Shown in pieces: positions 14,635 to 60,251 of a DNA stretch of 64,000 nt. Position numbers and translations under genes: made by a program. Source of the stretch: Psammoneis japonica (lineage: Eukaryota); contig QPGO01000058.1 of the NCBI GenBank assembly GCA_008632985.1, positions 372,001-436,000 on the forward strand, in the 5' to 3' direction. The notes under the pieces are model-generated. The model worked only from the letters and a program-made list of their open reading frames with translations, ran no database searches and was not told the DNA's origin. The first letter of the stretch is position 1. Each line of letters starts with the position of its first letter.

Positions 14635-14699
14635 TTCCCTCTAAAGAGTCACTGGCACTGCACTCAGTGCTTGCACACACTGACCTGCGTGCAGTTGAT

Positions 14700-32515: not shown

Positions 32516-32570
32516 CCAGGCACAGGCTCAGGCTCAGGCACAGGCTCAGGCACAGGCTCAGGCACAGGCT
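32516..32570. repeat. Hexamer minisatellite (CAGGCW)n
   Basis: caggcacaggctcaggctcaggcacaggct..., about 9 units. Confidence 0.9.
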
Positions 32571-34039
32571 CTAGCTTGTGGAGCTTGTTGAAGTGTTGTC
32601 GAATTGCAGGGCTCACAACAGGCTCACCAGTTTTTGACACACCTGGGAACACTGAACATTGTTCTTTTGCACCGAGAACCATGCGGACTCAGTGTGCAAA
32701 TGGTGTGCAAAGTAGTGCTCAATGACTCTCTCAAGCTCATCATCAGCGTCGGCGCCGCTCCACATGATCATGCAGGGCTCTCTCTCACAAAGTGCCTTCC
32801 AACTGTTCAACAGCAGTGCTGTCTAAGGACAGCCAACAGCAGAGAAAATGATGGTTGGTTTTGCTGCTTGGGAAACTTGAGCCAGCCATCACAATGCTGT
32901 CTGTGTGGTGCCAGCCTGATCCCGGAGCTGCTTGCAACTCACAGGAGTGACTCACAGGACCAACAAAAACTTGGTGCTTGAGACACTCTTTGGCACCTCT
33001 TTCTTTATGATGCTTGACAGCATGTTCATAAAACAATTGCCACTTTGTTGCTCATCAGAGAGTTGATTCCTGGCAACCAGCACTGCTGGAGTCCATGGCC
33101 TTGGCACTTCAATTTTTTTGAAACCCTTGTGAAAAAATGTCCAATTGCCCTGGCCCCACCCTTCAGGATTGTGAGAAGTTTGTCATGAGCAACACACAGG
33201 AGGTCTCTTGCTTGTGCAACACAGCATGCAATGTGAACCATGATCATTGGCACATCCACAGCTGCAGCACTGCTTGAAGCCCCCCTTTTCTTTTTTTGTC
33301 ACATCTTGATTTGAAACATTTTGCAACAAATGGTGGCAATTGTGATGCACTGCAGACCTTGCACAAATGAACACATGTGGTGAAATCCAGTCAAGTGAGC
33401 AGTGGGTGAAGGTTTTGCATCATGCTGAACCTTGCACACCAGAACACAATGGCAAGATTCAGCAAACTGAAGTTCTTCTGCAACACACTTCCTCATAATT
33501 TCAGCTCATTTTTCATCCAGCCATTTGCATCAAATTGAGCTGTCAACATGCAATCAACCTCAAGCAAAGAACAAAGAGAAAGGTGTTCTCAGGGGATGGT
33601 TCTCCTTCTTACTTTCTCTCTTGGAGAAGGGGTGGGCAAGCAAACTGCTGGTGCTGTTTCTTCTGTGAGTCAACATTTCAACTGACCACAATTGTCCTGC
33701 ACAACATGGAAACACAGTGGTCATCAACTGGAGTCAAGAATGCCAAACAGATGCCACAAGTTGCATGTTGCACCAAAGCTCCATTTGACAACCAAATTTC
33801 TTTGAAAGGAGCGCTGGTCTCAACCTTGGGATTGCACTTCTGCCTTCTGTGATGTTTGTGGGTGCTGCTGCTGGGCTCCATGATGTGGTGGTCTTTTGTT
33901 CATTTGGACAATGATGGCTTGTGAGTCTGGCATGCCCCATGCTGTGTTGCTGACAATTTTGACAATGGTGGTGCCAGCAGAGCTCTGTGGGAAAGGGGGT
34001 GAGCAGGGTTGGAGGCAAGTTGAAAACAGATCAGACAAG

Positions 34040-36620
34040 CTTTGCTGACCTGGTGTGTTGCAACACATGCAGAAGCCTTTCAGGGTGCGCTGCTTCCTGG
34101 AGGAGCCAAAATGTCTTGTGATCAAGGAGAGGCAGATTGTGACAAGATCAACAAGGCTGGCTTTGTGGGCATTGGCATGGGGTGCAACAAAGCCACTTGC
34201 CCAACTGCATTTGAAGCTTGCTGTTTCCCTGACAAAAACAATTGTGCCATGTTGAAGCAAGACACTTGTGATTCAAGAAGAGGGAACTTCAAAGGTCCCT
34301 TCTCCACCTGTGGTGGTGGAACTTGCCCACCAAGCCTCAAAACCAGATTTGGTGCACGCTTTTCCCTGCCAAAGCAAAAGAGTGTCTCTTCATGAAGATG
34401 GAGCAGGGTCTGACTCCACAGGAGGAATTTTCAACCACATCAGTTCTGGGTGCAACAAGGCCACCTGCCCGGGTGCTTTTGGTGCTTGTTGTTTTCCAGA
34501 CAGAGGCGCATGTTCTCAAAACAAAAATCTGTGGTGTTGGGAAGGCATTTTTTTAAGGTTCTTTGTCCACATGGAATGCCAGAATCTGTGAAACAGGGGA
34601 ACACCAACCAGTTTCTTTGCTCTTGTTCCAGAGCATTTCTCCACACCTTCCCTGGATTCATTCCCAGCTTGTTCCACCCACTCTTGTGCTCACAACTTTC
34701 AATCCATCCACCTGTCTTGTCCCAGCAGAAAAGTTGAGAGTGCACTGGCAGAGCACCACATGGCAAGCTGATCTGGTCCATTCCAAGAAAGCAACAAGGT
34801 TGATTCTGTGCATGGTGCTGCTTGGCTCATGTCTTTTTCACTGTCTGTCACTCAGACTGTAGACAAATGTGGCATCAGAGCCAGAGTGACAAGAGAAGCA
34901 AAAAATGTGATGACCAAATGCTTCAAGATGTGTTCAACCATTGCAAAGGCAGTTGATTTGATCAACCAGGGGGAGTTGATGCATTGGACAATGTTGTTGA
35001 GATGAACAAGAGGTTCACTCAGGCAATGGCCAAAGTGGGTGAAGCCTTCATTGCAATGGCCATGAACCTTGACATCACAAATGATGAAGCAAAACTGTTG
35101 ACTCTTGGACCACAAGGAAGAGCCATCATGGAATGAGCAAAAACAAGTCTGGAAAATGCTGCGGCATTGTCAAGAACAACTGAAGATGCTGCAATGTGGC
35201 ATGAATGGTGGGGGGCATCTCTTGAAGAGACTCTTGGCTTTGCCATCAACACACAAGCAAGAATGATGGAGGATGCTGTGGGTCTGATGCAATCAATGGT
35301 GTCAATCAACATGCCCTGCTGCCAGATGCCATTCCATCACATGGAACATGGTTTAGACTGTGCAGCACTTTCTTTGAAGTCTCAATTGACTTTCCAAATT
35401 TTGACCTCCCACCAGAATGTGCAGCCTCCTGCAATGAAATTTCCAAGACCAGCATAAATTTGATGATCAAGCACATTCAAAATGCAAGCCAAAGAAATCC
35501 TCCAGCCAGTCTGACAAAGAAAAAGTCATTCCTGACAATTTGTGTGTTGTGTCAGCACCCATTCTACAGCTCATTGCTCAGCTTGGATTGCAATCTGATT
35601 GCATCAAATGCTGTGATCCTGTCATTGAAGGAAATCACTTTTCTTGTTGACAAGTTTTCCAGCTTTGTTGACTTGGCCACATGCTTTGTTGATCTGCTCT
35701 TGGATGCTGCAGACAAGTGTCTCCAAGCCATTCCAAATGAGTTGTTTGGACCACTCATTGAGAAAATTAACAAACCAATTTCTGAGGTCAACAAATTGAC
35801 AAACAACTTGAATGGAGTGGTGTTGGTTTTACCTGACATTAATCTCAAGGCACCTGAAATCAGTTTTGACAAAGCAGTGCGCACCATCAAAGATTTTGGG
35901 CTGCAGCTCACAGCTGCCCCAACTCTTTGTGGCCCTTCCAGCATTGAGAATGTTGCCAATGCCAACTTGGAAATGGTGTTCCCTTCAACACCCAAGACAT
36001 CATTGGCTCCCAGCTTGAGAGCAATGCATGCACCAGTGCATGCACCAACAATCTTCCAGGAATGATCCCATGCTGTGAGTTTGCCTCTCCATGGCTCGCC
36101 CCAACCACCTGCCAGAAGGGCTTGCAAACAGGGGCCAGAGCCATGCAGACATGGTGCTGATTGTGCCTTTTGCACATGCAGACGTGGAACTGGATCAGAG
36201 CTTGCCTCTGGTGGAGAACTGGGGGAGACTTGCAGCGTCAATGGTCAGTGTTCCATGGGAGGATGCAACTTGATTTTCCCCTTGAGGTGCCTCACACAAG
36301 CGCATGTGACATTGTCAGCAAAACAACCTTGTGACTCCTCATTCCCATGCATTTGCCTGCATGCAGCTCAATGTTGGTGAGTCAGGGTGTGATGAATCTT
36401 TGCTGGACTGTGTTGGCAATGAATTTTGCACTCATGGAACATGCTCCAATGGAAGTGCAAGCACCATTGCATCTGTTTCACGCAAATCAGAAGCGCTGTT
36501 TCTTGTTGGTCTCACTTGAATCATCAACACTTGAAGGGCTGGTTTGAAGTGTGTCTTGGATGCAGACTGTCAACCCTGACATTGTGAAGTGCTCAGTGGT
36601 TGCATTGAGAAAGTGCAAAG
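34040..36620 (+). pseudogene. Degraded gene for a Cys-rich extracellular-type protein (GACC repeats, helical middle region, C-terminal Cys knots)
   Basis: Repeats such as GCNKATCPTAFEACCFPDKNNC...GNFKGPFSTCGGGTCP and GCNKATCPGAFGACCFPD, later GELGETCSVNGQCSMGGC. Many frame breaks. Confidence 0.6.
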
Positions 36621-36639
36621 TTTTGACATGCTGATCATG

Positions 36640-38330
36640 CTCTGCTTTTTGCTGGTGCATGAATGTCCACTTAGAAAGCACTTCATCTTTCTCATCACTG
36701 GCTTTTTCCATGGCTCTTAAAAGAATCTGGTTGGTGGCAATTGTTTTGACAACAGGGGCTGTGTTCCTGGTGGCAGCTCCTGCACTCTCTTCTTTGCTTG
36801 CTCAGACAGATGGGTGTGGCTGTGCAAGTGCAGTCTTTCTAAACATGCCGCATGAGGGCATTGAGATGGACTCAAGTCTTGATGCATCAAACTCTCTGAC
36901 TTTGTTCCTTTCAAATGCTTGCTTGGCCAATGCAGAAAACAGATCAAAGTGTCTTGTTGATGTGCAGACTTGTCAATGGCTGCATTGGGCATGCTTTTCT
37001 CTCAAGCAATTGGGCAGAAAGTGTCGTTTCTTGTTCACTTGATGTTGTTTCCTCATCTTTTTTTTTAGCAAAGCAGGCATTGGAGGAGGGTGCTTTGACA
37101 GTGGTGACTGCTGCATTCCTGGCACCTTGTGTTTGCAGCATGAGCTCAAATGGAAGCACAAGTGCGGCAAACAAAGCCAACAACTTTTTTGGCAATGAGG
37201 AATCACATCTGTCCTCAGCAGTTCTGGCTCACCCCCCAATGTTTCATTTGCCCAAACAGGATGGTTCCAGATGTGTTCTTTCTGGGAACTGTAATCTGCT
37301 GGTCTTTGTGATGTGATTGGTGGATGCTTTGGGTGAGGCCACACACAAATTGGAGTGAGAGCAACCCCAAAAGTTGTCATGGCTCACATCTCACTTTTCC
37401 CCTGCGCCATTGTTAAAAGCAAAAAGACACAAGGCTCTGGGTGCTTCCTTTCAAGTGAGTGCCAGAGCAACTTTTGTCTCTTCTTTGCTTGCCAGCAAAA
37501 ATGGTGGTGAGTTTGTGTGTGGCTGGCTGCAGCTGTTTGGAGCTTTGGTTGTGGCCAACAAAGAGGGACTTTGCACGAAGGTTGTGTCAAAGCACTGATG
37601 TCTAATGCACATGATCTCAGGGTGGTGTTTTTGCAGCTCTCATTGCACTGAAACTTTGAGCTCCACCTTGTTGCTTGTCTGTCTTTTGCCCAAGGCATGC
37701 TGACAGACAATGAAGGAAATGAAGATTGATGAAAAAATGTCTCATTTCCACTGCACAGTGGCAGTGGCCTGTCAGAGAACTGAAAAGACACCATTGTGTG
37801 TTTCTTCTTTCTCTTCCTGGCAGTTGTCATCAGTTGAAAATGAGTCTCCATTGTCTGCCTGACACAAGACCACTCACGCAGACACACATCATCTCCACTT
37901 GCTTGCAACAAAAATGATGTCTGTGGAAGGGTGAACCAACTTGCAACACAGGGCTGGAAGGTGAGTTGGCGAAGCTTTCATGCAAAGCAGAGCCAAGAAA
38001 GCATTGTTGGAAGTGCATCAGGCTTGCAACAACTGAGAAGATGTGAGAATCTTCTCGTTGTTGTGGGAAACACAAAAGCAAACAAAGCAAAGTTCGTGTG
38101 CCTGGCACGGCCGTCGTTGCACTCTGACAGAAGCCCTGATGCTGGATCGGCAAAGGGCAGATGTTGTAACATCATCTGCTGCATTTTGAAGAAGCAGCGT
38201 GTGTTGTTGTGTGTGGTGTGTCATGTGTGGTTTCGGTGTGGTGCTTGTGACAGAAGTTGGAAACATGTTTGGGAGAGGACGCTGCATGCAGGTTGTACCG
38301 GCATGGCCAGACCTTCACTTGAAACAATCT
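36640..38330 (-). mobile_element. Possible hAT-like transposase relic
   Basis: QATRWSSKF resembles the hAT TRWNS motif. The rest is too degraded to read. Confidence 0.3.
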
Positions 38331-40369: not shown

Positions 40370-41789
40370 ATGAGAGAAAGTCAGAATGCATCTAGTCGAA
40401 GAATGATTGTGTGTCGGCGGCAATTGTTTATTTTCTAGGTGTATTGATTGCTTTGGGCAGTGTAGTAAATATCGTTGTGTTTCATTTGGTGCACAGAAAT
40501 GCCAGTTCTACGGACGAATTGCAAAGCATACCAGTAACAAAGACAGAGTCGGCGAATGTCACTGCGATTGATGTGAACGATTTTCCGAAATGGATTTCAG
40601 ATTACTTCAAATGGCATGTAGAAATGCGTCGCAAATTTCCTGGCAAGGACTCTTTACAAATCCGGACGCACCAAAATTATTAGTTCGTACATGTTTGGGA
40701 CTTTGCGGTGGACTCAACGACCGACTGGGTCAACTTCCCTGGGATCTGTACTTGGCCAACCAAACGAACAGGGTCTTTCTTATAAGTTGGTCACGACCAA
40801 GAGCTCTGGAGAACTTTCTCGTTCCCAATCAGGTGGATTGGTCAATACCAGAGGAAGTGGAAGGATGGGGCTTTAATGATATGCCCAAAGTTCGAGCACT
40901 CCCGAGCTTTTCGCTGATATGGAAGAGTCAAGACCATCTGGAGATTTAGCACGGTGCAAGTGGACAAGGCAATTCAACGCGCAAACTCTGGCGAGTACAA
41001 GGACGAAAAGATCCTGACACATCGTATCCTGGGGCACTTGCTTGAACCCAATCTTGAGTCGAGACTGGAGTCTTTGGGGGAAACGGACATGATTCATGAT
41101 ACTTTGGCGTTTGGTCGCATCTTCCGAGCACTTTTCAAGCCAAGTCCTGCTATTCAAGCTTGTTGGATCAAGTGTACGCTAATCTGAACATTGTCCCTGG
41201 TCACTACACCGCAGTGCACTGTCGAGTTCGGCATCCAAAAGCAAGACCCAGCGGCACTGCAACCACCATTGACAAGACGGGTCTGCCCTTTTTCGGAGAG
41301 AACAAAGATTTCGCAGTCGAAATTGCCACCCATGCTATTCAATGTGCCAGGACTCTCTCCCTTGATCAGAGTGAACCCGTTTACTTCTTTTCTGACTCGA
41401 TAGATCTAGTCAAGTACATGGCGCATGACTTGAAGGACCAAGATTTCTTGGGAAGAAACGCTTCCGTGATTCAACAAAATAAAGTGGATCAAGCTGCGGT
41501 GCGAGCAGTGACACGGGTGAACTTGGTGGCGAGAGAAACGTCGGGTGAAAATGTACACATCGACAAGCAAAAGGGACGACCACCTGAAGAATACTATGCA
41601 ACCTTTGTTGACTTGTATCTTGCCATGGGTGCTAGATGCATGACGTATGGCATCGGCTTTTACGCTGTTTTTGCGTCGAAGCTATCAGGAATTGAATGCA
41701 AAATGCTCTATCAGCAAGAGGTGTGGGGCGGTACATATGGTAAGCAGGATAAGGCAAAAGTGTGTACACCGGAACCTACAAAGATCTAG
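40370..41789 (+). CDS. Fucosyltransferase/NodZ-like GT-B glycosyltransferase, with 3-4 apparent frameshifts
   Basis: TM anchor, CLGLCGGLNDRL, YTAVHCRVRHP, VYFFSDS and TFVDLYLAMGARC, spread over ORFs 40411, 40590, 40954 and 41160. Confidence 0.65.
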
Positions 41790-41908
41790 TTGAAAGCTGA
41801 TAAAGATGGAAGGGAAACGGTAGAACAGAGCTTGTGGTCTTACGTCGGCGACGAGCAACTCTTCAAGCGAACATTGGGGCGTTAAGAAGCCTTTAAACTT
41901 AATATGCT

Positions 41909-43433
41909 TCAGCTTCCTTGCCTGGTTCTACTTGTTGGTTCCTCGTCGTTCAATAATATCTTGCGCCAAGGAGAAATTGCTGGCACCCCCACCAATAGTA
42001 GCTTCCAATGGAGCATTCACGGTACGACCTAATGTCAACGAGAGAAGATCGCCCATAAAGCCAATCAATGCGTGCGAAACTCTTCATGTACAGTATCTTC
42101 TGGTGGAGCTGCAGGATTAACGTTTGCCTCCAGAAGGTACACACGATCGTCTTCGGTGACCATTATATCCAACCCAGCAATGGCAAACTTATCCACACAA
42201 TCCAAATTTCCTCCGTCTTGTCTCGCACTCACGACAACTCTGCGTTTAATGTCAGGCACAAGGTGCTCGCCAAAGATCTTTGCGACAAACACTTCCACGT
42301 CTATGGCATAAAGGGAAATATCTGAGCTTTTTCTCGTACTGAGCGTGTAAAAACAAAAAAAAAAAGTCGCTACTTACTCTCTTGCATGTTTCTCGCGGTC
42401 AGTTCAGCGACATTGTGCAAAAGCACGCGGTCTGCTTCAACAGAGAGGGCACCATTGGTAATGTGAGCCTTTGGATCGCGCTCCGAACACTTGGGTCAGA
42501 CTCGTCCACAGGTTGGCTTGCCACACGAACTTCGTGTCGATTGTAAACATAGACATCCAACACGTCGGGGTGGCTCAATTTTTCAACCGCCACCACATAG
42601 GTACGAATATGGAACTTTCTACCTCCATTTATGAGTAACGGAGGATATACTTCTGCTTGTAACACTGCAGATTACACAGAAAGAAGAAAAGACTCTGTTA
42701 CCAAATCGTGTTTCTGCGTCTCAACAAGCGGCATTAAAAAAGAGACAGGCACACGTACCCCAAGAAGGGATTCGCCCCTTTTGTGCAATCATACTATCCA
42801 AGAAATCAGGACCTTCACCAACCGCACTCTTCCGATGTGATTCAATGATTTCATAGATTTCTTCGGCAGATGCTACAAAGTAAATGCCTTCTCCCCGGCT
42901 TCCCATGGGCTCCTTCAGCACAGCCACGTCTGAAGGGTTTTCCGACAAGTGAGGGAGTTTCTCGCCCACCAGATTCTTACATTCTTCTCTTCTAACATCC
43001 CAGCTGATTAACTTACAAGGAGGCGAGAGATTCAAGTGCTCACAACGACACCTCTGAAGCGTACGGACGAGTTCATCCTTGTCTTCCAATCCGTCAAATG
43101 CCGATGATGTGCCGTGCACTGCGTAACTTAACTTTGAAGAATCTTTCGACATGACGTCTACACGGAGTGTACATGGCTTTGGTCCCAACTTCTTGATAGA
43201 GACCTCCGAGACGGTGTGGTTGGAGTGTTTGCAATTGCTTGAGCCTTGGCCATTTGAGTCGACGTGAGTTCAGACGGATTGGTGATTTCTTTTGTTGATA
43301 AAACTCCAGGAGACGAAGACTGGAAGACCTGACGAATCACCCAAGCCCATGGAGAGCGAATTGTATATTCAAGCTCCACATCTGACTCAGGAGAAGGAGG
43401 AGGAGGAGAGTCATCAACGATACCGTTCGCCAT
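41909..43433 (-). CDS. Tubulin-tyrosine ligase family (ATP-grasp) protein, with two probable introns and several apparent frameshifts
   Basis: VLKEPMGSRGEGI, LQAEVYPPLLINGGRKFHIRTYVV, AHITN and FAIAGLDIMVTEDDRVYLLEANVNP. Probable introns near 42667-42758 and 42324-42375. Confidence 0.8.
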
Positions 43434-44449
43434 GGTCGTGGTAAAAACGAGAATCCAAAACTGCTGGCGGCTGGCGGCAAAAGGCATCGGCGGCTGGTCC
43501 TCTCGCTCGCTCGCTCGGCTGTTTGCCGCGTACGGAATGACCAGTACACATTCTACGTAGAAAGAAACTCCGACAGCAGGACCACGAATGTCCGCTAAAC
43601 GTGACCTGAGTTAACGAATCGTGTGGGTGGACAGTGGACAGGCCAAAATGGGCCACAATGACGACTAACCACTGCGGTAGCGACGCACTGACACGGACTT
43701 CGTTTGACGCCCTTGACTTGACAATGTCGGGGATCTCATGCTGACATCGGCGACATGGAAGCGGGGATGTGTGAGCTTCTTCAACATGAAGAAGATCATC
43801 ATGAGCATTTTGATTGTGTTGTCTTGGTGCTCCTGGTCAAGAAAATTGCAAAGGAGGTGCTGTCTCGCCAGACAAAGTTTCCTCGCTTCTCAACATTGAG
43901 CGGAGAGCCTCCTTGGCTTCAGAAGAATTGCAAACACATCAAATCTAGAAGAGTGCAAACCATTCAACTCAGAACCATTTCCTTGGTTTAAGAGCAGATG
44001 AAATTGACTCACAAGCGGAGTGAGGTGGTGTGCTGCAGTGCCGCTCGTCTGAAAAAGGAAAACCTGTGGCTGGCAGGGGGCTTGCAATGAAGCTTCAATT
44101 GCTGCTCCAATTTTGAATCCTCCCTGATTTAAAGAACAGACAGTGGGCATGTTTGATGTGGCAGCAACAAGAATGTGATGCGCTGTTCTTTAAAGTGCAC
44201 AGCAACAACACAGAAAAAGAATCGAGTGGTGGTTTGTTGAGTGTGTGCAAAAACATCATTCGTGAGACACACCACCCTTTGCAAACAGTGGCAGTTTGAA
44301 AGAAGCAGGGTCCAGCTGTCTTCAGGACATGACAAAAGTGCTTTGAAGTCAAGAGCAAAACACAACACGCGGGTCCATTTGACAAACTTCCTCTGCCAGA
44401 AAAAAAAACAGATGGATCGAAGCACGAAAAAAATGCTGAGATGTGTTCA

Positions 44450-44930
44450 GCCATTGTGCTGTCCAAGTTTCTTCCCAAACCATGAGCCTGAACTGCCAAC
44501 CATGTCATCAGATTCAAGATTTCCCTGGTTGCAGTCAGGGCTCTTGGGGCATGTGTTCTTGCAGTGCTTGACACTGGCTCCCATGAGTTTTCCTCCATGC
44601 GGGTGGCACTTGGGCTGTTTGAACAATGTGATGCACTTGCCATTCTTCCAGCAACAGGCACTGGGCTTGGAGGCACAGGTCTTCTTCTCACACTCAGTGT
44701 CAAATCCAACAAACTTTCCATGCTTCTTTTTCACACAAGCGGTCTTCTTCAACATGGAGCTGTTTCCATTTTTGCAAGCAGCAAGCAAAACAGGCACCAG
44801 GCATGGCACATTTTCTTGCTGCACATGACACCTTCACCACCAATCTGCCCACCCTGCATTGCAATGACAAGACGCCGACACCCCAAAGAGGCCATGCAAT
44901 CCACACCCAAGAGGCCACACCATCCATGCC
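44450..44930 (-). pseudogene. Second degraded GACC-repeat Cys-rich coding segment
   Basis: GKFVGFDTECEKKTCASKPSACCWKNGKC...GGKLMGASVKHCKNTCP, the same repeat type as 34040-34560. Confidence 0.6.
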
Positions 44931-45376
44931 ATCCATGCCCAAGTCTAAAAAAGATGCACAAGAGTCCAGGTTGTCCCATTGTGTTGCTGCAGCACAGCCA
45001 GAAAACAAGAAACGACATGAACGTTTCTCCTGTGCTTTGTCTGCCCGATTGGCTTGATCGACATGGGGCCGAAAACACGGCAGAAGATGTTGCCTCTTTT
45101 GTGTCAAAAAGCAAATCCAACCACATTGCATGTGAGATGTGTCCTGAGTCGGCACCAAAACTTGTTCCGCTGCCGCAACCAAGCCATTCTGCCACCGACT
45201 CAGAACGGATCGCCACTCAGGTGGGTTTCGGCACAGTTTCGGCACATTCGGCATTCCATGGGAACAGAATGGAGCACCGCCACCAACCACTGGACACAAT
45301 GATTCAGTGCCAGATGATGCAGCACCCCACGCTGTGCAAAGACACATGGTTCCCATTTTTCTGTTGATTCATCCTC

Positions 45377-45940
45377 TGTGGGAGGTGCTGGAGCGTGGCA
45401 ACATGGAGCGTGAGAGACAGCGCGATCGCACTTTTTTGATGTTGTGGGAACACGACAGCCATGGAAACATTATGACCTGTTGCAACAAGTGCAGCAGGAA
45501 CAGTGTAGGGTGTGGCAGTTGTCTGAATGGTGCTGATGGCATTGCATCCATTGTGGTGACTGTGGGAGGCGCTGCAGCGTGGCGAAATAGAGCGTGAGAG
45601 AGTGACATCGCACTTTTGACATTGTGGGAACACGACAGCCATAGAAACGTCATTGCCTGCAGCAACACGCATGGCAGGAACAGCATGGGGTCTGAATGGT
45701 GCTGACTGCATTGCATTCACTGTGGCACCTGTTAGAGGCGCTGGAGCGTGGCAAAACAGAGCGCGAGACAGCGCGATCGCACTTTTGACATTTTGGGAAC
45801 ACGATGGCCACAGAAACATTGTCACCTGCAGCAACACGCACAACAGGAACAGCACAGGGTTCGGCAGTTGCCTGAATGGCGCTGACGGCATTGGATTCAT
45901 TGTGGCAACTGTGGGAGGCGCTGGAGCGTGCCAGAGACAG
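45377..45940. repeat. Tandem repeat, 3 full units plus a partial one (starts 45377, 45561, 45730, 45910)
   Basis: Units of 184, 169 and 180 bp beginning tgtgggagg.gctggagcgtgg. Reads as a ~60 aa repeat on the minus strand. Confidence 0.92.
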
Positions 45941-48502
45941 CTTGAGTTGCAGCAAACAATTTTGTCGGTGGCTGGTTGAGGAGAGGCAAAGCACCTTCAT
46001 CATCTCTTGAACCAGGCGCACCAGGAACAGCGCAGGGCATGGCAGTCACGGGAAAGGCAACCACGGTGTTTTCATTCACAACAGAAGCTGCGGCAGGCAC
46101 TGGAGCGTGAGAAACAAAGTGTCAATGAACAAGCTCTAATTTTGGCAGTTGTGGGCATGCGACGGCCACACAAACAACATTGCCTGTTGTGCCAGAGGAA
46201 TTGGCAAATGAACAAAGTGGTGACGCATCAGGGGAAGGTGATGGAGACGAACATTTTGAAACCATCATGGTCGACTTGTGTTGTTTTATTGGTGTTGACA
46301 GCGACTTGTCTTGACGCGTGCTTTTTTGTTGGTTTCGCGGTGCTCGCGAACACTGCTAGCTAGAGTGGCACGCGCATTCAAGCAAAGGCAAGTCTTGTAT
46401 GTTGCATGATGCGGTTCACATTTTTATCCAAATCTGCAAAGGTTGGGCAATGACAATGTCGTTTGCAATCTTCAGGACATCATAAATCTGAACACACAAT
46501 GCATTGAGACTGCGTCTGGCCGTGGGGAGTGGGGGGTGGGGAGGAGGGGCGGTCGGGAAAATCCGAGAACCTGATGGCCGACAGACGTGGTGAGCACGTG
46601 GTGAGCACAACACCGTGGTGAGCAATTAGCAGCTCTCCACTGGACAAACCAAACCTTCTGCCTAATGTTGCTTCACCCCTGAAAAACATGGTGGGCAAAC
46701 AAATGCATCTCATTGTTGGAAGAACATTGATGAATCACAGGGGAGCATCAAATGACATGATGTGCAAATTGCGGTCATCAAGCGGGGCATCTTGGTCAAA
46801 ACTGGAACACTTGGCAGGCTTGCAAACTTCTGCTGAGCCACAGGGATCCCTCCCTTGATCACAAAATGCAAGGTCATTGTCAGCAATTGTGGACAGGGGG
46901 GGGGGGGGGGGGGCAGTGTGGAGGAACAAGACAGTGGAGTTGAAGGTGACCACATGCAGCGCAAGAGCAAACCACTGGAGAAAACAACATGTTGCCAACA
47001 AGCACCTGGAAAGCTCACCAGACAAACAGAACACACCAATCTGGAGTGAGTGAATGTCAGAAGAAGGTGGATGCTTGGCATGTGAGCATCCAGCAATGTG
47101 CAAATCTTGGTCACCCAACAGTTCACCATTGGAAGAGTTGGGGCACTTGCCAATCTTGTGCGCACTTCCTCTGCACCATGTTGCTCCCTCCCCTGACCAG
47201 GAATCAAAGGATTGCTGTTTGTCAGAGATGGTGGGCAGGTCTGGAGCACCATGAAAAGTGCAGTTAGACATGACAATGTTCCTGGCATTGGAGGAAAGAG
47301 ACTGGACAGCAGAAAGGAGTGAGACTTGGCGGCCCTTGTTCACAGCTGCCCTGCTCCTGTTGGTCTTGTTTGAACAACAGGAGAAGTGGCAGCATTGAAG
47401 ATCTGAGGTCAATGACAGCCAAGCTAAAAATCCAAAGTCAATGGGAGTTGACAACCAAGGCAACATCATTGCAGGGGCCGCAGGTGGCACAGGCACAATC
47501 TTGGGAAGAGAGGGCAGTTCATTGGTCTTGCAAATGATGCCACCATTGCATGAAACAACACAGTGGCCAGGAACAAAATGCTCCGTGGGCTGCAGCAAGA
47601 TGTCCTTGTTGACATCATGGGGAAGTTCCACCAGCTTGGCAGGCAATGCCAGGGAACCAGTGCCAGCAATTGTGGGCGGCATGCCCACAGGCACCACAAT
47701 GGACATGGCAGACTTGGCATTTGTTGGAATGGCACTCGCAAGAGCTGTGACAAAATTGTCCATGCCAGTTGAAGAAGGGCTCCTGTCCAAAGACGGCAAA
47801 GGCTGAGGGGGATGCTGTTCCAGCCGCAATGATCACACCCCACATCTGGATCAAAGCACACATGCAAAGCACCAATCACAACAAATTGCCGTTGCATCTT
47901 GCATCTTGAGGGTCTTCTGGATTGCTGCCTGAAAACTCTGGTGGGGAGTGAGACAAGTCTTGTGGAATTCCCCTGACACAACCACTTGCAAATTGGCTTT
48001 GTCGACAATCAATTTAAATGAAGAGACATCACAGGGGTGCATGACAAAAGGCAGGAAACCACATTGCATGACACAATTGTGGAAAAGCCAAACAAAAAAG
48101 CTCCTGGGTTCTGCATTGTGACTTGCATCTTGATCTGCAAAGAAACAGCCAAGATCAACAATTGGCTGAACCTGCATGATGCAAATTTAGGTGCCTTTGG
48201 ACAAAGGTGGGCTCAGCATTGTGATCACAAAAAACAAACTGAGCCTTGGCAAGAACACCCACGTGGGCATTCACAATGTCATCTGGCACCAAGCCAATGC
48301 TTTGGTGGGTGTCAGATGGCAGAGCACCCCATTGGCGAACATTGTGAGGTAAATTGGCCTGAAGGCAAAATGACCCTTGGACACAACAGGCACAAGGGAT
48401 TCTCCACAACACCCACCAGGCATCACATGTGGCATTGGAGGGCTTGTGATGCATCCTCACACAAGTCCACGACAAGATCAGACATGAAAATTGACAGAGG
48501 AG

Positions 48503-48563
48503 TTTCTCATCCAACAATGGTGGAGACAAAACTTTTCTCATCCAACAATGGTGGAGACAAAAC
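48503..48563. repeat. Perfect tandem duplication with 31 bp period
   Basis: tttctcatccaacaatggtggagacaaaac occurs twice. Confidence 0.95.
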
Positions 48564-50899
48564 CATGCCATTTTAGATGAGAGTTGAAGCACATGTGCTC
48601 TGTGTCAACTGCAACTTGTGCTGTTGTCTCATGGCATGAAGAGGAAGCATTGGATCTTCTGCTCAAGCATCTGTCTGGAGAGGTGAGATGTGGAGTTGTC
48701 AACCCTTGAAACCTTCACGTTGAGAGCACAGCTTGCCCAAAGATTGGCGCAACAGCTGCTGCATCCTTGGGGTTTCTCATGCAAGGCATGATGAACTCAT
48801 GAAAAATGTGGTCCCACACAAGCTTGTGAACACCATCCTTGGCTTGGGTGCATTTGCAAAAAGTGATCCACCAGGTCAACAATCATGTTGCCACAAGCAA
48901 AATTCAGGAACTTTGTGCACTCGCAATCCATCATGGAGCAAGTGCACAAAAAATTGGTCATGCATGCACAGAAGTGCAGCATTGTCCTGCGGCCATGGTG
49001 CCAAGAAAAAAAGTTCCAGGATCAAAAATGCAGCAGGCCCATTTGGCTCAGAAACCAAAGCTCTGCAGTGAGCCTGGCATTGAAAACATGCATGTAAATT
49101 CAACACTGTCTCGTGCAGAGTTGCATTTCCATCACAACCAGACACACAGAAAGGCTCATGAGGCATGTGAGAGATTTGTCAAAATGAGTCTCAAACTCAA
49201 CAATCACAACACACTCATGGCACTGTCTTCTTTGGGCTGTGGCAATTCTCTCTGGCAAGTGCCATTGCTGCAAGTGCTGCCCAGGCTCCATGGCATCATT
49301 TTTCATTCCAAGGCATGCACTTCATAGAAATTGTGATGGCCAAAAAATGACATGCCATGTTTGTGAGCTGACCAACATCCCAAAAACATGCAAATCAACA
49401 TTGTCTTGAGTTTGTCAACATCTTACAAAATTTTCTTGCAAAGCTTGTTGAGTGGGAGCAAGTAAAAGGCTCCTCAATGGGAGTGCTTCAGCAGTGCAAA
49501 TGCTGTGAAAAAACTCTAAAATCACAGAGCCAATGGTCAACCATGCAAGATGATCAACCCACCTTTTGAGCTTTGACAAGGAACAAACAACATTTTCAGC
49601 AAGCACACAAATGGCGCAACATGAGAAAACACAGAAAGAGCTTGCCACAGCAATGATGTTGACCACTCAGATGTTGCCCACACTCAGCAATCAAGTCATG
49701 AGTTGAGGCATGCAACCACTTGTGCCATGTGTTGCAACTGGCCAAAGCCCCCCCCAAGAAACCAAACCAATGCACCAACCGTTTTGTGGGACTGCGCCAA
49801 TGACAGAAAAAGAGCTCCCATGAAAAATGCATTGTCATCATGATGTGTGCCATGGTGAGATGTGTCAAAGTGTGTCATGCCATGCTCCATGCAAAATCAG
49901 GACCAGTTGAGTCCAGTTGAGTGCACTCACCTCTTGTGCTTCACTGCAATGAAAACTTGGTCATGGACATCAGGGCCAGTTGAGTCCTCAGGCAGCATGG
50001 TGTGTCAGGCAAGTGCAGTGTGCTGATCAACTGTGTGCATCTGAGGCATGTTGACAGCAGCCAACTTTCTTTCAGGATTGTGGCACAGACCCCACAACCC
50101 ACACATCATTGGAAAGCCAGCAACAAGCTGAACAAGGTCCAGCACATGTGACATTGGTCAGAGTGTGCATGGAAAGTGAGTGTGTGTCATTGACAATTGG
50201 TCAGCTCCACAAGCAAGAATGACTGTTTTGGGCAGCTTCTCTTGGCTGTTTTGTTTTTGTGTTCTGCTCAGATGTTTGTCACACATTGAACACAACATTT
50301 GAGCTGGAGTTCCAAAAGTTCATCCAGATTTGTGCACCACACAAAATTGCTTCTTGAGGAACCCAAAGTTTCATGACTTTGCTCTTGCTCCACAGCTCCC
50401 ACAACTGACACAATTGAGAAAAAGCTTCCGTCACTCACTTTAACTGAGTGTTTTCCAGCAAGTGGCAAAAGCCAATTTTTGACAAGTCTTCTCAGCATTT
50501 AGATTTTTGACATGAAAAAAAGTCATTGCCATTGACAAACCTCCAGCAGTCGCAACACACAGGCAAGACCTGAGTGTTTTGTTGATGAGCTGGTGACAGA
50601 CAATTGGTGTTTGGCACTTAGAAAGGCATGTCTTTTTGGCATTTGTGGGCAATGCAATGCCTGTGTCAGGTGTGCACAATTTCATTGACAAGCTGGTGAC
50701 AGACACTTTCACATTTGACATTTAAAGACATGTCAGGACAGGCAACATTGGGGTGCTTTTTTTTTTTCAGCAAGCTGAGTGTCCAATTTGCAACTGTGCA
50801 AAATGTTGTGAACCACAGGACTGTCACAAACCAATGAAGCAACACACTCCAAGGTTCAGTGGGAATCTTTTGAAAAACACCCATGACATGAAATGCATT

Positions 50900-52345
50900 G
50901 TGAATTGCTCAGGGACATCCACAGAATCATTCAAACCCAACAACAACAGCTGCTGCAACAGGGATTGCAGCCAACCCTGCTGATGAGAACCCTGGTGTTG
51001 AAGACAACATCTCCAGCTGTGGGTTGGATGATGACAAGGAGGAAACCCCATGCACTCCCACGCAGAATGCCATCAGATGGGTGCTGAGACTCTGGACAAT
51101 GTGGCTGATCATGCATCACAAGATGGTGTGTCTTGAGGACACTGGAGTGGTTGACCCAAACAATGGAGCCAATGACAAGCCCCAAACGGCAGGAGTGGGC
51201 CAAGAAGAACCTCTTGAAACTGCAGGAGTGGACCACAACACTGTGGAGAGCACATGAGTGGGGCAGGATGTGGAAGACACCCCCAACACCAAATCATGGG
51301 TGATGTCAGGGGAGCAGGCAGCAGCCAAAGCAGCCCAAGATGTCACATTGGATGACAAAAGCCAGTCCAGTGATGCTGCCATCAAAAAGGACATGGACAA
51401 GAAGAGGTGCAGCAAACACACTGGAACATGCACTCTGCACTAGAGGAAGCCAAGATTTTGCAGTTGCATGCACCTCAACCTCCTCAATGTTGATTGCACT
51501 CAATGCCCCCCCCCCCATGAAAAAAGCCTGGAGACACAGCTCAGCTCAAAGGTTGGAGAGGCTGTCATGAAGAAAGAGATGGAGCAATGATGTTGGGAGG
51601 GGTGAATCTGTCAGCAGCTCCTCCAAGCAGAGAAGCTGAGCACACACAGCTCAGCTGAGAAAGTGAGCTGGCAGGAGTGCACAGCAGAATGCCCAACCTG
51701 CTTTGGACAAGGAGCTTTGTGGATGCATCATGGGCAAGGGCACAAGATGAAAAAGAGTGCATTGCATCAGAACAATGAGAGAGCTGCTTGCTCCATTGGC
51801 AAAGAATGGCCAGATGTCAAGTGCCACATGAGGATGTTTTTTGTTGCTGATGGTGTTGTGAAAAGAGGTCTGTCTGACAGCCAAAGATTGCCCAGCTGAG
51901 ACCATGCTTGCTGGTGACTGCTTTGCCAAGCCCTCACAAGGATGGCTGTTTGCCAAGCTTCAAAACCAGATCAGGAACATGAAGGATGACACCCAAGTTG
52001 ACAACCAACCTGAGCCATTGTGTCACAGGCAGGCAGGAGTGTGTTGGAGCAAAAAGAGCACACAAACCCAGCAGAAGCTTTGAAAACAGCAGCAGTGCTG
52101 GGAGGGTGGCAGGCCCTGCCAGGAATCCATGTCTGAGGAACTTGACAAAACAGATCTGAGAGCCAAAAGGAAATGGTGCTGAAGATGATGCAGCTGATGG
52201 AGCTGTTTGGGAATGAAAACAAGAATGTGACAAGAGCAAGGATGTTCTGGTTGTCAAACAGAAAGATGAGACCAGTGAGAGGTGAATGAGCAAAAGAGAT
52301 GAGCAAGATTGACTCACTCCAAGAAAACAGCTGCTGATTTCAACA
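50900..52345 (+). mobile_element. 5'-truncated, internally deleted Copia relic: IN-RT linker, RT start fused to RNase H, PPT and 3' LTR (52042-~52345)
   Basis: Linker with repeated TAGV and DMDKK. EAVMKKEMEQ runs directly into GAMMLGRG..SSSKQ.KLSTHSS, then GQGH, MFFVAD and KPSQG. caggagtg-TGTTGG at 52042, candidate end TTCAACA at 52345. Confidence 0.75.
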
Positions 52346-53096
52346 CCCATCAGAACATGCTGTGATTTTCCATGGGAAACTTGTCATTTTGTCCATCCAA
52401 ACCCAAGGAGTGGAGACAGCTGTTCCAACATGGTGCTCCAATGAAAGAATGTGCATGTTTTTTTCTGCAATGAAAAAGGAAAAGCTGTGGATTGAAAAGG
52501 GCTGGCACTGTGTCAAACTAAATGATGGGCATGTGTTGTGTGAAAAAGTTGTGTCACAAGCACAAGAAACCCCAGATGTTGAGCAAGTCAAGCAGCAAGA
52601 TGTCAAAGAACCTTCTCACACAAAGCTCATGCATCCAGAGAGCAAGAAGAGTGCATGGCTGCATGCAAAAATGATGAAGGACATCTGGGAAGTGGAGTGC
52701 AAGCTCATGACAATTAAAAACATTTCAGCATGGAGCACCGCATGAGGAAGTCAAAGGCAAAGAAGGGAAAAAAAGATCTAAATTTTAAGTGCTGTCACTC
52801 CATTGCCAGCAGCACTGGCACCGGCTGACTTGCACTTCCAGTGCACACAACAAGTGTGGCAGAAGGGGACAAGACCAGGCCAGAATGGGTGTTGCCAGAA
52901 GGTGACACCCCACCAAAATAACTGAGAAGGAAAATTTTGCACAAGGGTTTCATTGTGTGCTTGTTGGTGACAGCCACAGAAGGAACGCCATGGCTGCAAA
53001 GGACAACTGCACTCAGATGGGTTTTTAAAAGAGTCCACAAACCACACAAGAGCCTTGAAGGTGAGACAAGCAGGTCATCAGAGAAAACATTCACAA

Positions 53097-53560
53097 AAAG
53101 CCAATGGACATGTCAAAAGAATGACAATCAAATGACACCAAAGGATGACACATGTTCTTGCTGGAAAGGGCCACAACAGAAGCAGCACTTTCACCCCAAA
53201 GAGTGAAGGACTTGATTGATCGGCAGAGAAAGGAAGTGGCATTGAAAACAAGTTGGCAAGGATGAAAGCAGTCCAAAGAAGTGACACGCAGATTGTCAGT
53301 GGCAACACATGGAAACAATGCCAGATCTTGTGCAGAAAAGCCAATGGGAGCACTGCAGCAAATGGACAACAATCAAATGACACCAAAGGACAACTGACGT
53401 TCTTGCTGGAAAAGAGAGCCGCAGCAGAAGCAGTGCTTTTGCCCCAAAGAGTGAAGGACTTGATTGAGCAGCAGAGAAAAGAAGTGGCATTGAAGACCAA
53501 TTGGCAAGGATGAAAGCAGTCCAGAGAGGTGACATGCAGATCATTGGCAATGTCTGTGGA
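53097..53560. repeat. Diverged tandem duplication, period ~240 bp
   Basis: aatcaaatgacaccaaagga...ccccaaagagtgaaggacttgattga...ttggcaaggatgaaagcagtcca at about 53126 and 53371. Confidence 0.9.
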
Positions 53561-55018
53561 TCTGCAGGGAATTTGTGCTGGAGCCTGCACAGAAAATTTT
53601 CTCAGACAACTGAAAATTACAACAAACAATGACCAGCATGCAAACCACAAGGCTGTGACACTCATCATTTTCCACTGATGAACATTGCTCATCGTGCTGC
53701 AATGAGGTTGTGCCATTGGCAAATGTGGACAAAATGGGCTTGTTGGAGCCAGCATGACACCGTCTGAGAAGGGCAACATCAGCACCACAACAAGTTGCAC
53801 AGAAACCTGTGTGGAAGCTGAGGGCATGTTGCTGATGTCAAAAAGTGTCAAAGGCAAAGAAGGGTCCTCTGCCACAGAAGCACATGGAATGGAAGTCCAC
53901 CATGATGATCAAAAACATTTTCATGTGGAGTCCCAGGATGTCAATGCAGGCAAAGAAGGATCCCCACCATGGAAGATGAAGAAGTGGATTGTCACGATGT
54001 TGGCACACCATCTGGGGGGCAAAACATGGCTGCACACAAAGATGATGAAGGACATCAAGAAGAGTGAACAGAAGCATGCGATCATCAAGAACATTGTGGC
54101 ATGAAGTGCAACGGCAAGAAACAGAGTTATGATGATGAACTGCCAGATGAGATGTGCCCCTGGCAGTGACAATCACCATTGCCATGCAGTCAAACATGGC
54201 TGGCACAATGATGATAAAGAAGAGGAGGGGGGGGGGGGGGGGGTTCTGCAGCAGGCGCCAATGTTGTGAAGAAGATGGGTCATTGTGGTGATGCACGTCA
54301 ACTGAAAAATGATGATCACCATGCAGTTGAACACGGCCAGCACGAGGTGCAAAAAAAGGGGTTTTCAACAATCAGCAAGGATCAAAATTAAGAAGTTGAT
54401 TTGAACTTTGACCTGAAAGATGTTCGCCAAGCCATTGATCAGAACAATGTGGATTTGTGATGCATGCACACCTTGCAGCAAAGCTTGAGAATGTAAACAT
54501 CCAAGACATTGCCAGGTGACAGTGTGCACATGAAGCATCGCGGTTGGGTCACATTGAAATGGTTCAATTTTTGATTGAAGAAGGACGGATTGATGTCAAT
54601 GCCTGCACGGGACGATTGGTCCAATGGATGTAAAGCTGCTCTGATGGGCCTGCAAGTCAGGTCTACAAGAAAGCCATGATGTCGTTACAATCTTGACGGC
54701 CCATGGAGCTGTTTTGCCTAGACCAATTGAAAAATAAAACCAGAACCGGAAACCATGATTAGTGAGGTGCTATCGATGCATAATTCCACCCACAGGACAC
54801 CCTGGAACCTTTTCGGTTAGAGGATCAGGTGCACAAAGGATGGATGAGGAGATGCGATTCTTCGGTCGGTCTGTCGTCTGTCGCCTTGTCGGCAGATGGT
54901 GCGACATCACTCTCAAGGATGGCATTGGAGAGGACGCGGTGGGAATGCTCGCATCTTTCAAATTGATGTGGCGCTCTAGCTACTATAAATTTTACACTTA
55001 CTCGCGCTGTGGCATGAA

Positions 55019-58000
55019 TCACAGCTCTTGCTTCCAATGCTCTACCAAGTGTGGCTTAAGACGAGGAGAGTATGTTGAAGGTGCCACCTCTTCTGTCCCA
55101 GCGACATGCATGTGGGAACCATATTTCTGCTCCATTTGGTCAATTTTCGCCTGTGCCCCATGCTCTGAAAACTCCATTCTCGCTCGATCCAGGTAGTCAG
55201 CAGCGGTAGACGCGTCACCGCACTCCAACATATATGAACCAGCTCTTTCGCAGGCGATTGCCTTAATTAGCCTAAAGCCGCACCTACTCGCCATGGCAAT
55301 CGCAGAGTCAAACTCTGACAAGACAGTGCCACTACGATCCTTCAAAGCCTGCTTTTCTGCTTCGAGGAGTTTTAACATGGGTAAGAAGTTAGGGGACCCG
55401 GCTTCTGCGATGATCTTGACTTGACGGATGTACCAACGTGCACGCCATCTATGAAGGCACGGTGTTTTTTTCCGCGCCAGGCCAAGACACGTCATTCCGC
55501 AGAAGAAGTAGTTGAGATACTTCATAAAAAAGGTCGAAAAGAAATCATTGCGTGGATCCACCTTCTTCCTTTCGAGCTCCGCAAGTTCCAGTTCGTCCAA
55601 CAAGTAGAACAATACCATGCGAGCATAGGCCAAAAGGAGGAGCGAAGAGGATCCTTCGTTTAAACAGACCAGATTGTCCACAAAGTCTCTCTCAACCATT
55701 CCAATACCAGACAGTTTCAGGGGATTCTCGCACTTTCCCATTAGGTTCAGAGTGAGCTGAAAGAATGGTAGCAATTCCATCAATGTGGCTTCTTGACGGA
55801 ACTCTCGACAGAAGTCGCAGTAGCCCTTCAACTCTTTCTCCAAGCTTGTCAACGGCATGCCGACAACAACGCTTAGCATGCCATGTCCCTGGAGGCAATA
55901 TCCTGCTAGTTCAACATTCCCTGTTTCCTTTGCGATGGTATAGGCTTTCAACATTCCATCTAAGCTCTCGTGGATGGGCCTCTTGAGATGATGACTGAAG
56001 AGATGTACCACCTTTACCGCGTGAGGATAACCCTCCCGGAATTTGGGGTCTCGTACAAGATCCAGTGCAAGAGCCGCATATTCAAAGGACTCCTCCAGTT
56101 CTCCGAAGTCACCCAGAAGCACACCAAAGGCTGAAATTCCGTAGGGGCTAAAGCTACCCATTCCATGTTCCAAAGTCAGACGTAACATTGTTAAGCTATG
56201 CAAAATGAGAAGGTGTTCTTCTCCTGCATGCCAGTCATATATCGTGAGAGTCGCAAGCAGTCTCATGGCTTCAATAACAATGTTGTCAGTCATGGGAGGT
56301 AAACCTCGAAGGTCTGCTGCCTTTCTACCCCTCAGCATGTGTTTTGTCTCAGCTACCGCCCGCCTCACTTGACGATCGTTAGCCTTTACAGGTTGCCATA
56401 CACCAAGACGTTTGAGCACCGCGGCGCCTTCTTTGATGGCTCCAGTCCAGTCCTGACATGCGCCCAGGATAGCCACTCGGACACTGTAAGCGCGCAGCCG
56501 ATCCTGTAGACAGCAAGCATGATTCAGCACCTCTGAAATAGACTCGCTACTCTTCTCAAAATTACCATACGAGTAGTGCATCACGGCCGAATACGAGCAG
56601 AGTTCTAGAGAAAGATCGTAGTGCTTACTCCATCTATTCGTCGACCCAGACAAAAGACAGTCCAACCCTCGGTCTGCATACGTGGCAGCGCTTATGAATG
56701 CGGACTTTCTAGAGGCATTATGGGCCGTTTCGAGGCACAGTCGAGCGAGTTCTTCAGCTGTAAGAGTGCAATGGTCAGACCGTTTCGTGAGGAGATTGAC
56801 AGAAGTAAAGAGCATCCACTCTTCCGTGCTATGTGTTCGACTCATTTCCAGAAGGATCTCTCCTAGTTGCACCTGAAGGCGGTCGCCTGCATCACCTTTC
56901 GGAAACATGGCGAAGACCGACTGCTGCACTCGGTCGTGCGAGAATTTGTACTTGCCCAATGACAGGACTTCAATCAAACCGGCTTGAGTAGCATTCTTGA
57001 GCGCTCGATCAATTTGTTTTGATCCATCCTCGATTGTCTCGCCAGAATGGACTATTCCTTGACAAGTGTTTTCTGATTTCAAGTCTAGATGCATGGTTAG
57101 AGCCTGAAAGAAGTGTTTCGTCATCAAAGTATCCTCCAACACACCAACGTTGAAGGTGAAGCCAAGGCAGGCCGCCACCATCAACACCACCTGCACACTA
57201 GACGACAGTTCCGAGATTTTATCCATCAACAACGCAAGGACATTGTCAGAGACGTCTGTCGTCGTGGCAATCGCTTCGGCATCCCACTCCCATTTGTTGG
57301 TCGCGAAGCTAAATCCCAGCAGTCCCCGACGATGCAACATTTCAAGATATTGGATCACAAAATAGGGATTACCTCCCGTCTTGCGATGGGCAATGGAACT
57401 AAGTGATGCAGTTTCCTGAGGGCGGCGTTCAATGACTGTCGCGACCATGTCATTGACTGCATCCATGGAGAGAGGACCCAAGGATATTTCAGACACCGCG
57501 AGCGTGTTGTCGTCTGGAAGATATCGGTAGTTATCTTCGTCTCGAAATGCAATCACTAAGAGGGTGTTGACTGAATTCAGATCTGAAGCAAGGGAAGCAA
57601 TGAGCTGCTTGGACGCTTCGTCAGCCCACTGCAAATCATCCAGGAATAGAACGAGATGGGAATGGGCACAGACCGCAGCGAGAAAGGAGCGAAAGAGAAA
57701 CTTGAATCTCTGGAATGCATGCTCATTGGTCACCTGACTATCGCTGCATTCCTTTGTTTCTCTGTAACAATTCCCAACCAAAAGTCGGAGAGAAGGCATC
57801 AACTTAGACAAAATTCGAATCTCATCGCTGGTGAGATTATCCTCCATGGTACGTCGTATCTCCTCTTGGTGTTCGCTGGATCGAATCAAATGACAGAGTT
57901 CTGTCACGGCATCCACAACTGCACTGTAGGGTCTCAAGTCATTCTCAAACTGTCCAAACTTTCCTGAAACGAAGAATCCATCGCCTTTCGCTTCTTCTTC

Positions 58001-58246: not shown

Positions 58247-58454
58247 GATGCTACCGGTATTTCAATTCTTCTTGTGAGTCACGAACTTTGCTTTTTCCAC
58301 TGTTCGTCTCGATAGTTCTAATGCCAATCGGCAGCCACGAAAGAGGAGACAAATAGGTCGTCGGAGAAAAGATCAGAGGTTGTGAAACCCTCGCTATGAT
58401 GACACATAACACGCAAAATGTGGGGTTCGCAAAGCGCAGATTACACGTCGCATG

Positions 58455-60170: not shown

Positions 60171-60251
60171 NNNNNNNNNNNNNNNNNNNNNNNNNNNNNN
60201 NNNNNNNNNNNNNNNNNNNNNNNNNNNNNNNNNNNNNNNNNNNNNNNNNNN
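60171..60251. other. Assembly gap (81 N) followed by a poly-C run
   Basis: Run of N in the sequence. Confidence 1.

Follow-up and report, generated by a model that had tools for sequence, protein, structure and literature searches.

Probable copy-by-copy change of TpA to TpG or CpA in a tandem array within TA- and CG-depleted intergenic DNA of Psammoneis japonica

Here, we analyze a five-unit tandem array, and the compositionally unusual DNA that surrounds it, in a 64,000-nucleotide stretch of the genome of the eukaryote Psammoneis japonica (GenBank assembly GCA_008632985.1, contig QPGO01000058.1, positions 372,001 to 436,000 of the forward strand; hereafter the window, in which position 1 is the first letter). 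At four sites of this array, three copies carry TA, TG and CA at the same position. The array is likely a copy-by-copy record of a regional process that turns TpA into TpG or CpA, which has run nearly to completion in all five depleted intergenic domains of the window and is joined in their cores by a change of CpG to TpG or CpA.

A register search for repeats resolved the five units of the array at spacings of 184, 169, 180 and 179 bp, and Tandem Repeats Finder reports 45376–45930 with a period of 169, 3.1 copies and 77% matches. Units 1–3 are 77–82% alike, and units 4 and 5 are degenerate. A preliminary description of this DNA had claimed that four sites show TA, TG and CA across three copies, and an alignment of units 1–3 recovers every one of them at the coordinates quoted there:

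45376..46270, no strand: tandem array of five units of 169–184 bp, with unit starts at 45376, 45560, 45729, 45909 and 46088
45404..45405: site 1, TG in unit 1; TA at 45588 in unit 2; CA at 45757 in unit 3
45462..45463: site 2, TG in unit 1; TA at 45642 in unit 2; CA at 45811 in unit 3
45471..45472: site 3, TA in unit 1; CA at 45651 in unit 2; TG at 45820 in unit 3
45506..45507: site 4, TA in unit 1; TG at 45686 in unit 2; CA at 45855 in unit 3

Other genomic copies carry TG at site 4 (45507), and from contig depth the 169–184-bp family would have about five further copies with at least 90% identity. Among the 169 ungapped columns of the alignment, 46 are variable: 33 differ by transitions alone, and 13 include a transversion. 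All three units have a pyrimidine–purine (YpR) step at 40 sites, among which four have the states {CA,TA,TG}, six have {CA,CA,TG}, six are variable and include CG, and the remaining 24 are invariant (4 CG, 11 TG and 9 CA). When the order of the columns was shuffled 20,000 times, three-state sites averaged 0.46 against the four observed, and 7 of the 20,000 shuffles reached four. Sites with both CA and TG averaged 0.95 against the ten observed, a number that no shuffle among the 20,000 reached. The three-state pattern in the array is real and not a product of chance.

The array lies in a part of the window that is strongly depleted of TA. Over the whole window, observed/expected ratios are 0.30 for TA, 0.53 for CG, 1.50 for CA and 1.55 for TG. 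Using a 500-bp composition profile together with TA-free gaps, we delimited five sharply bounded intergenic domains that total 34,102 bp of the 64 kb and contain 118 TA and 339 CG, as opposed to 1183 TA and 1614 CG in the gene-bearing remainder of 29,898 bp. The observed/expected ratio of TA within the domains is 0.02–0.1. The domains, and the island that holds the array, are:

7360..9758: domain D1, TA nearly gone and CG partly kept
12017..21933: domain D2, TA and CG both nearly absent, CA/TG doubled
32560..38167: domain D3, depleted
43678..54400: domain D4, which holds the tandem array; its core, 47000–54000, is at single-copy depth
45000..46599: multi-copy 1.6-kb island within D4, which holds the array; 12 TA and 76 CG, contig depth 380–400 against a baseline of about 60
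58546..64000: domain D5, which continues past the end of the window; CG partly kept in 58546–59900

Compared with normal DNA, the domain cores hold 3.1 TA per kb instead of 39.6 and 4.9 CG per kb instead of 54.0 (9% of normal), while CA/TG is up from 146.4 to 232.4 per kb. The total of YpR steps is unchanged (240.0 per kb in normal DNA and 240.4 in cores), and the CA/TG gain of 86.0 per kb matches the combined TA and CG loss of 85.6 per kb. The remaining dinucleotide classes and the base composition change little, and CA and TG counts are about equal in every domain. By this mass balance, the depleted DNA looks like the ordinary DNA of this genome with its TA and CG rewritten to CA or TG. Because TA is nearly absent from the domains and the CA/TG gain equals the loss of TA plus CG, TA has been lost and not gained.

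The cores are well reproduced in contigs of a sequencing run, X1, which match them with 0–1 differences over 1856, 2454 and 1300 bp. In the same run, contig depth over the core is 70–74, compared with 60–68 over the neighboring ATPase gene described below, and internal repeats within the window are few. Reproduction at single-copy depth indicates that the cores are neither an assembly artefact nor a product of repeat-induced point mutation (RIP).

Repeat copies in the depleted DNA allowed the change to be followed in place, copy by copy. In ten pairwise alignments of such repeats, which are non-independent (units 1–3 supply three of them, a three-copy family another three and a single array two), adjacent double differences were dominated by exchanges between CA and TG, with 77 cases compared to 10 of the next type (AT/GC) and 3 of the mirror type (AC/GT). 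A repeat pair in normal DNA had no CA/TG double in 85 columns. An exchange between CA and TG needs TA or CG as an intermediate, so each copy resolved an ancestral palindrome independently; at the four sites, the intermediate seen between CA and TG is TA. The preliminary description had proposed independent mutation on either strand, and it is borne out both by the roughly equal numbers of CA and TG products and by the dominance of CA/TG doubles in all repeat pairs.

Comparison of the window with other copies or alleles yielded 158 differences in all, and the composition figures that follow are drawn from 40 of these 158. Eighteen lie in D4; all are transitions, and 17 fall in YpR steps. Seven of the D4 YpR differences involve TA and six involve CG, and the other four positions make up two CA/TG doubles. 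Where TA is involved, it is found in the other copy six times and in the window once. By comparison, 21 of the 40 lie in the gene region 40001–43677, and 11 of those are transversions.

The young island separates the loss of TA from that of CG. It retains 19% of the normal TA density and 88% of the CG density, and both are lost in its immediate flanks. Within units 1–3, the four sites retain TA in 4 of 12 copies, whereas ten sites with CG retain it in 20 of 30; under any assignment of the six {CA,CA,TG} sites, TA retention (13–33%) stays below CG retention (42–67%). Persisting CpG-rich strings in the repeat, two of which (gcgcgatcgc and gagcgtgg) we find in the sequence, had led to the earlier claim that TA loss is at least as fast as CpG loss here, and the lower TA retention in both the units and the island agrees with it. 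D1 and the start of D5 are likewise TA-free with part of their CG left, and we found no segment in the 500-bp profile that lacks CG but keeps TA. Taken together, the island, D1 and D5 show that the two losses are separable and that TA goes first where the DNA looks young. We found no inverted repeats around the island in 44400–47200.

Both losses depend on the neighboring bases. Under the assumption that the depleted DNA started out with the composition of the window's gene-bearing DNA, we determined TA survival relative to normal DNA as 0.007 for RTAY, 0.058 for RTAR, 0.049 for YTAY and 0.324 for YTAR (R, purine; Y, pyrimidine). The geometric mean of the two extremes, RTAY and YTAR, is 0.048 and close to both mixed classes, as two independent strand-wise hits would give. 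From these survival figures, the A in TAY mutates about four times faster than the A in TAR. CG follows a like pattern with the flank reversed, its survival in the cores being 0.038 for YCGR, 0.080 for RCGR, 0.088 for YCGY and 0.171 for RCGY, with a geometric mean of 0.081. Context varies with domain type for TA (chi-square 146, p 2e-31) and, in the cores, for CG (chi-square 26.3, p 8e-6). On each strand separately, the fast changes are those of A to G within 5'-TAY and of C to T within 5'-YCG. Product gains are asymmetric in agreement with this rule, at 17.3 per kb for RCAR compared with 9.7 for RTGR, and 12.0 for YTGY compared with 5.2 for YCAY.

Several observations weigh against or limit this reading of the array and the domains. 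Sites 3 and 4 are CA in both outer units, 4 and 5, and site 2 is CA in unit 5, and equal-weight parsimony on the array alone permits a CA root, with CA>TA in the lineage of units 1 and 2 and a later TA>TG. Judged from the array alone, a TA root common to all units is probable and not proven. The flank rules inherit the assumed starting composition, and the products that they predict are found in four of the seven TA-involving differences to other copies (of the 40 among 158), with two that do not fit and one neutral. Site 3, a YTAY, has CA in three units and TG in one, contrary to the predicted bias toward TG. Run X1 may be the assembly's own data, so that its agreement is a consistency check and not a fully independent one. 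Finally, none of the 73 domain open frames of at least 120 codons matches Pfam, and domains that contain no viral or transposon marker leave a reading as defense against foreign DNA without direct support.

Three considerations nonetheless make a TA root the likelier one. CA/TG outnumbers TA 75-fold in the cores, an excess that requires a forward rate above the reverse rate by a factor of that order or more, and CA>TA is the rare direction in this DNA. All but one of the four sites are RTAR, a context in which CA is the favored product. The outer units face the same process, and hence are not clean outgroups. A TA>TG or TA>CA step is present on either ancestry path, and the earlier proposal that TA was ancestral at the four sites and then lost is supported, with the outer units 4 and 5 as its caveat.

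The limits of the depleted domains track genes. Domain edges span no more than about 200 bp, at a distance of 180–720 bp from the closest first ATG or stop, and genes, introns and promoters keep normal TA and CG. Three genes illustrate this arrangement:

10023..11294, plus strand: glycosyltransferase family 34-like open frame of normal composition, an island between D1 and D2
41160..43487, minus strand: tubulin-tyrosine-ligase-like spliced gene of normal composition, with two GT-AG introns
55019..58261, minus strand: 1080-codon open frame of normal composition, with an AAA_16 (STAND-type) ATPase domain

Around the ATPase gene (55019–58261), the depleted DNA stops 619 bp past the stop codon and resumes 300 bp before the first ATG. 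The normal-composition parts also carry a protein kinase and a 716-codon frame with beta-propeller and Ig-like matches. In the ligase-like gene, both introns (42301–42377, 77 nt, and 42665–42758, 94 nt; minus strand) keep their TA and CG, indicating that the sparing of genes is regional and not due to codon selection. Contigs of a second run, X2, join across both of these introns, and X1 contigs read through them. As it joins across GT-AG introns, X2 behaves like RNA, although it is listed as 'DNA?'. X2 covers almost nothing of the depleted domains and little of the ATPase gene too, and we draw no conclusion on expression from it.

In the reading that we favor, A:T>G:C transitions on either strand have turned TpA into TpG or CpA, region by region, and the change of CpG to TpG or CpA is a second process alongside it in the domain cores. 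Both act strand-wise and in a neighbor-dependent manner, fastest on the A in 5'-TAY-3' and the C in 5'-YCG-3'. The self-complementary YpR steps have thereby become CA or TG, and transcription units, introns and about 200–700 bp of flank are spared. The data show the direction of change, its regional limits, the flank rules with their product asymmetry, the single-copy state of the cores and the faster loss of TA in the young island, whereas the agent is inferred. The agent of TA loss could be an enzyme directed to silent chromatin, and our leading though tentative candidate is a DNA-acting adenine deaminase of the TadA/ADAT2 type. Adenine deaminases of tRNA modify A34, the base after the universal U33, and the target of bacterial TadA is U-A-C; such substrates would fit both the TAY motif and the preference for T before A. 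We know of no enzyme established as editing adenine in double-stranded cellular DNA. For the CG loss, cytosine methylation followed by deamination is the economical and a somewhat likely route, and it is unlikely that the deaminase behind the TA loss removed CG as well.

A bolder version of this proposal, to which we give a small but appreciable chance, holds that a chromatin-directed DNA-editing system erases TA and CG outside transcription units, perhaps by one dual-specificity deaminase that would convert A to I at 5'-TAY and C to U at 5'-YCG. If so, gene islands would stand amid TA- and CG-free DNA, and the system would act on single-copy DNA independently of repeats and, judging from the young repeat island, would be active to this day. 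Such a system would amount to a RIP-like genome defense of opposite chemistry outside fungi, and to a natural editor of adenine in double-stranded DNA with a defined motif.

An untargeted process, in which TA and CG are mutable genome-wide, are preserved in transcription units by transcription-coupled repair (plus selection) and drift to equilibrium in intergenic DNA, would account for domain edges that track transcription units, for spared introns, and for depleted DNA that is single-copy and without a foreign marker. We nevertheless consider it rather improbable. About 200–400 bp upstream of start codons, untranscribed in the direction of the gene, are also spared, and the island at 45000–46599 lost TA and not CG while its flanks lost both, so exposure differs between adjacent untranscribed segments. 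Moreover, the TpA process of Bigelowiella natans is described as episodic and limited to certain regions and lines (bioRxiv 10.64898/2026.01.13.699255).

The target could instead be the pyrimidine. In silent chromatin, a dioxygenase of the TET/JBP type would oxidize the T of 5'-RTA and the 5-methyl-C of 5'-YCG, and mispairing of 5-hydroxymethyl- or 5-formyl-uracil and of 5-formyl-C would yield T>C and C>T. A single chemistry on the 5-methylpyrimidines of two YpR palindromes would then cover both losses, which do map to the same domains, and 5-hydroxymethyluracil prefers TpA in dinoflagellate DNA. However, nothing in the window speaks for base modification, the TA and CG losses come apart in the island and in D1 and D5, and their flank preferences differ (a purine 5' of T, a pyrimidine 5' of C), making oxidation quite unlikely.

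RIP, or the decay of CpG alone, would make TA the derived state at the four sites, through C>T at CpA/TpG or through double CpG deamination, and could draw on the CA of the outer units at two or three of the four sites and on the loss of CG in the domain cores; it is very improbable, as RIP enriches TA (here 3.1 versus 39.6 per kb), the depleted cores are at single-copy depth, and the island lost TA with its CG largely intact, so that CpG decay cannot be the source of its CA/TG sites. An artefact, in which misread modified bases or errors of assembly or polishing mimic CA and TG, is scarcely credible even for so clean a pattern in a window with an 81-N gap and four G or C runs of 17–18 nt, given that the k-mer contigs of X1 give identical sequence over kilobases with no strand conflict, that misreading a palindrome on each strand would give conflicting TG and CA reads and break contigs, and that repeat copies differ heritably, copy by copy.

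The open frames of the depleted DNA resemble those expected by chance. Stop codons occur at 0.029 per triplet in the cores compared to 0.036 in normal DNA, and as TA-free DNA is devoid of TAA and TAG stops, long open frames arise in it by chance. About 44 frames of at least 120 codons are expected by chance in the 25 kb of cores, and the number of long frames is close to chance. The longest frame in the domains, of 365 codons (46735–47832, minus strand), is of a length for which 0.04 would be expected by chance in the cores; it matches nothing in Pfam, and a search of 1.84 billion representatives gave no homologue. Period-3 power is 0.5–4.2 in the domains versus up to 17.7 in genes. The origin of the domain DNA may have been erased.

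Other repeats were observed in and beside the domains. Dispersed multi-copy families in the depleted DNA reach a depth of 740–825 at 52674–54007 and about 590 at 59344–60000, over a baseline of about 60, and have many rearranged joints. An internal duplicate of 215 bp (53096–53305 and 53336–53550) is 82% alike with nine CA/TG doubles, and a 31-bp tandem duplication (two copies, 100% identity, 48503–48563) in depleted DNA contains no TA or CG to record the process. In normal DNA, a 33-bp tandem duplication (2.1 copies, 94%) occupies 5883–5950. The spacing of surviving CG, with peaks near 140–220 and 340–360 bp, was rejected as a candidate signal; it is confounded by the repeat period itself.

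At the start of D5 (58500–60000), GC content is 0.57–0.59, TA is absent and CG is half kept, and the GC skew over 58001–60000 is strongly negative at −0.37. Homopolymer runs of 17–18 G are found at 9344–9360, 46896–46913 and 54227–54243, and a run of 18 C at 60252–60269, all in depleted domains. The C run adjoins the 81-N gap (60171–60251), and an X1 contig terminates exactly at 54227; these runs may be true G-tracts or points of assembly collapse. About 0.6% of positions between 40001 and 42700 distinguish the window from X1, and half of these differences are transversions; this may be an allelic or strain difference confined to that gene region. Over the cores at 47233–52805, the window and X1 differ at one position in 5.6 kb.

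The nearest relatives of the ATPase are metagenome proteins at 37–50% identity, followed by cyanobacterial multi-domain kinases at about 27–29%, and the gene family may be of bacterial descent. Searches of a 5.8-billion-protein collection with three open frames of the window gave a best identity of 50% for one, no match for another and 35% for the third, none near-identical. A metagenome scan with the ATPase protein alone found no relatives. Scanning with an ATPase alignment gave 63 loci, most of them bacterial-looking and none with joint TA and CG depletion, which is weak evidence given that the contigs are short. Rfam and tRNA scans gave no matches.

The window offers an independent and much more advanced example of a TpA-specific A:T>G:C process reported once before. 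Testable predictions follow from it: TAY as the target motif, an accompanying process at YCG, and boundaries that track transcription units. It also carries a warning for annotation, since TA-free DNA produces long open frames by chance. If the enzyme were found, it would be relevant to genome defense in protists and to base-editing tools.

Several known systems share features with these domains. RIP in ascomycete fungi converts CpA/TpG to TpA, which raises TA, and needs duplicated sequence. The domains resemble RIP in being regional, transition-only and dinucleotide-specific rewriting of non-genic DNA with sharp compositional boundaries, but the direction is opposite (there is no TpA excess) and the cores are single-copy, at odds with both defining tests of RIP. 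Methylation-driven CpG decay likewise leaves a CG deficit balanced by a TG/CA excess, as in the cores; it does not explain the TA loss, and the two losses are uncoupled in the island, D1 and D5. Hyper-editing of retroelement or viral copies by ADAR or APOBEC shares clustered transitions and a neighbor preference, including one for U/T on the 5' side of the edited A. When an RNA or single-strand intermediate is edited, the marks fall on a single strand, and the preferred 3' neighbor of ADAR is G. In the window, by contrast, the changes are spread equally over the two strands and arose in place once the copies existed, a given site can have CA in one copy and TG in another, and the 3' neighbor is a pyrimidine.

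The closest counterpart is found in Bigelowiella natans. In full-text literature searches, only the B. natans preprint describes a TpA>TpG/CpA process, and the other matches concerned RIP or viral CpG/UpA suppression. In a mutation accumulation experiment (Mettrop et al., 2026; bioRxiv 10.64898/2026.01.13.699255), two silent viral inserts gained 231 new mutations, of which 230 were A>G or T>C, all at TpA. The targets were integrated giant-virus and virophage DNA, the de novo rate was about 1000-fold over background, and only a subset of the lines showed the process, for which the authors put forward an ADAT2-like adenine deaminase. As the preprint describes it, that system shares with ours regional A:T>G:C transitions at TpA, giving TpG or CpA according to strand, and a long-term signature of TpA-poor, CpA+TpG-rich clusters, which are often unannotated there. 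In the P. japonica window, depletion is instead saturated over about half of the sequence and fills whole single-copy intergenic spaces without a viral marker. The spectrum is also not almost purely AT>GC, as CG is lost in the cores too, and it is near-pure only in the island at 45000–46599. The flank rule (TAY, YCG) is seen here, and the main text of the preprint mentions no CpG, context, flanking or trinucleotide. The evidence in B. natans is direct, from mutation accumulation, whereas here the process is read from sequence comparison. In its sequence-level features, the process in the window works like that of B. natans, and the CpG co-loss, the saturation, the spread through single-copy intergenic DNA and the flank rules set the P. 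japonica domains apart from it.
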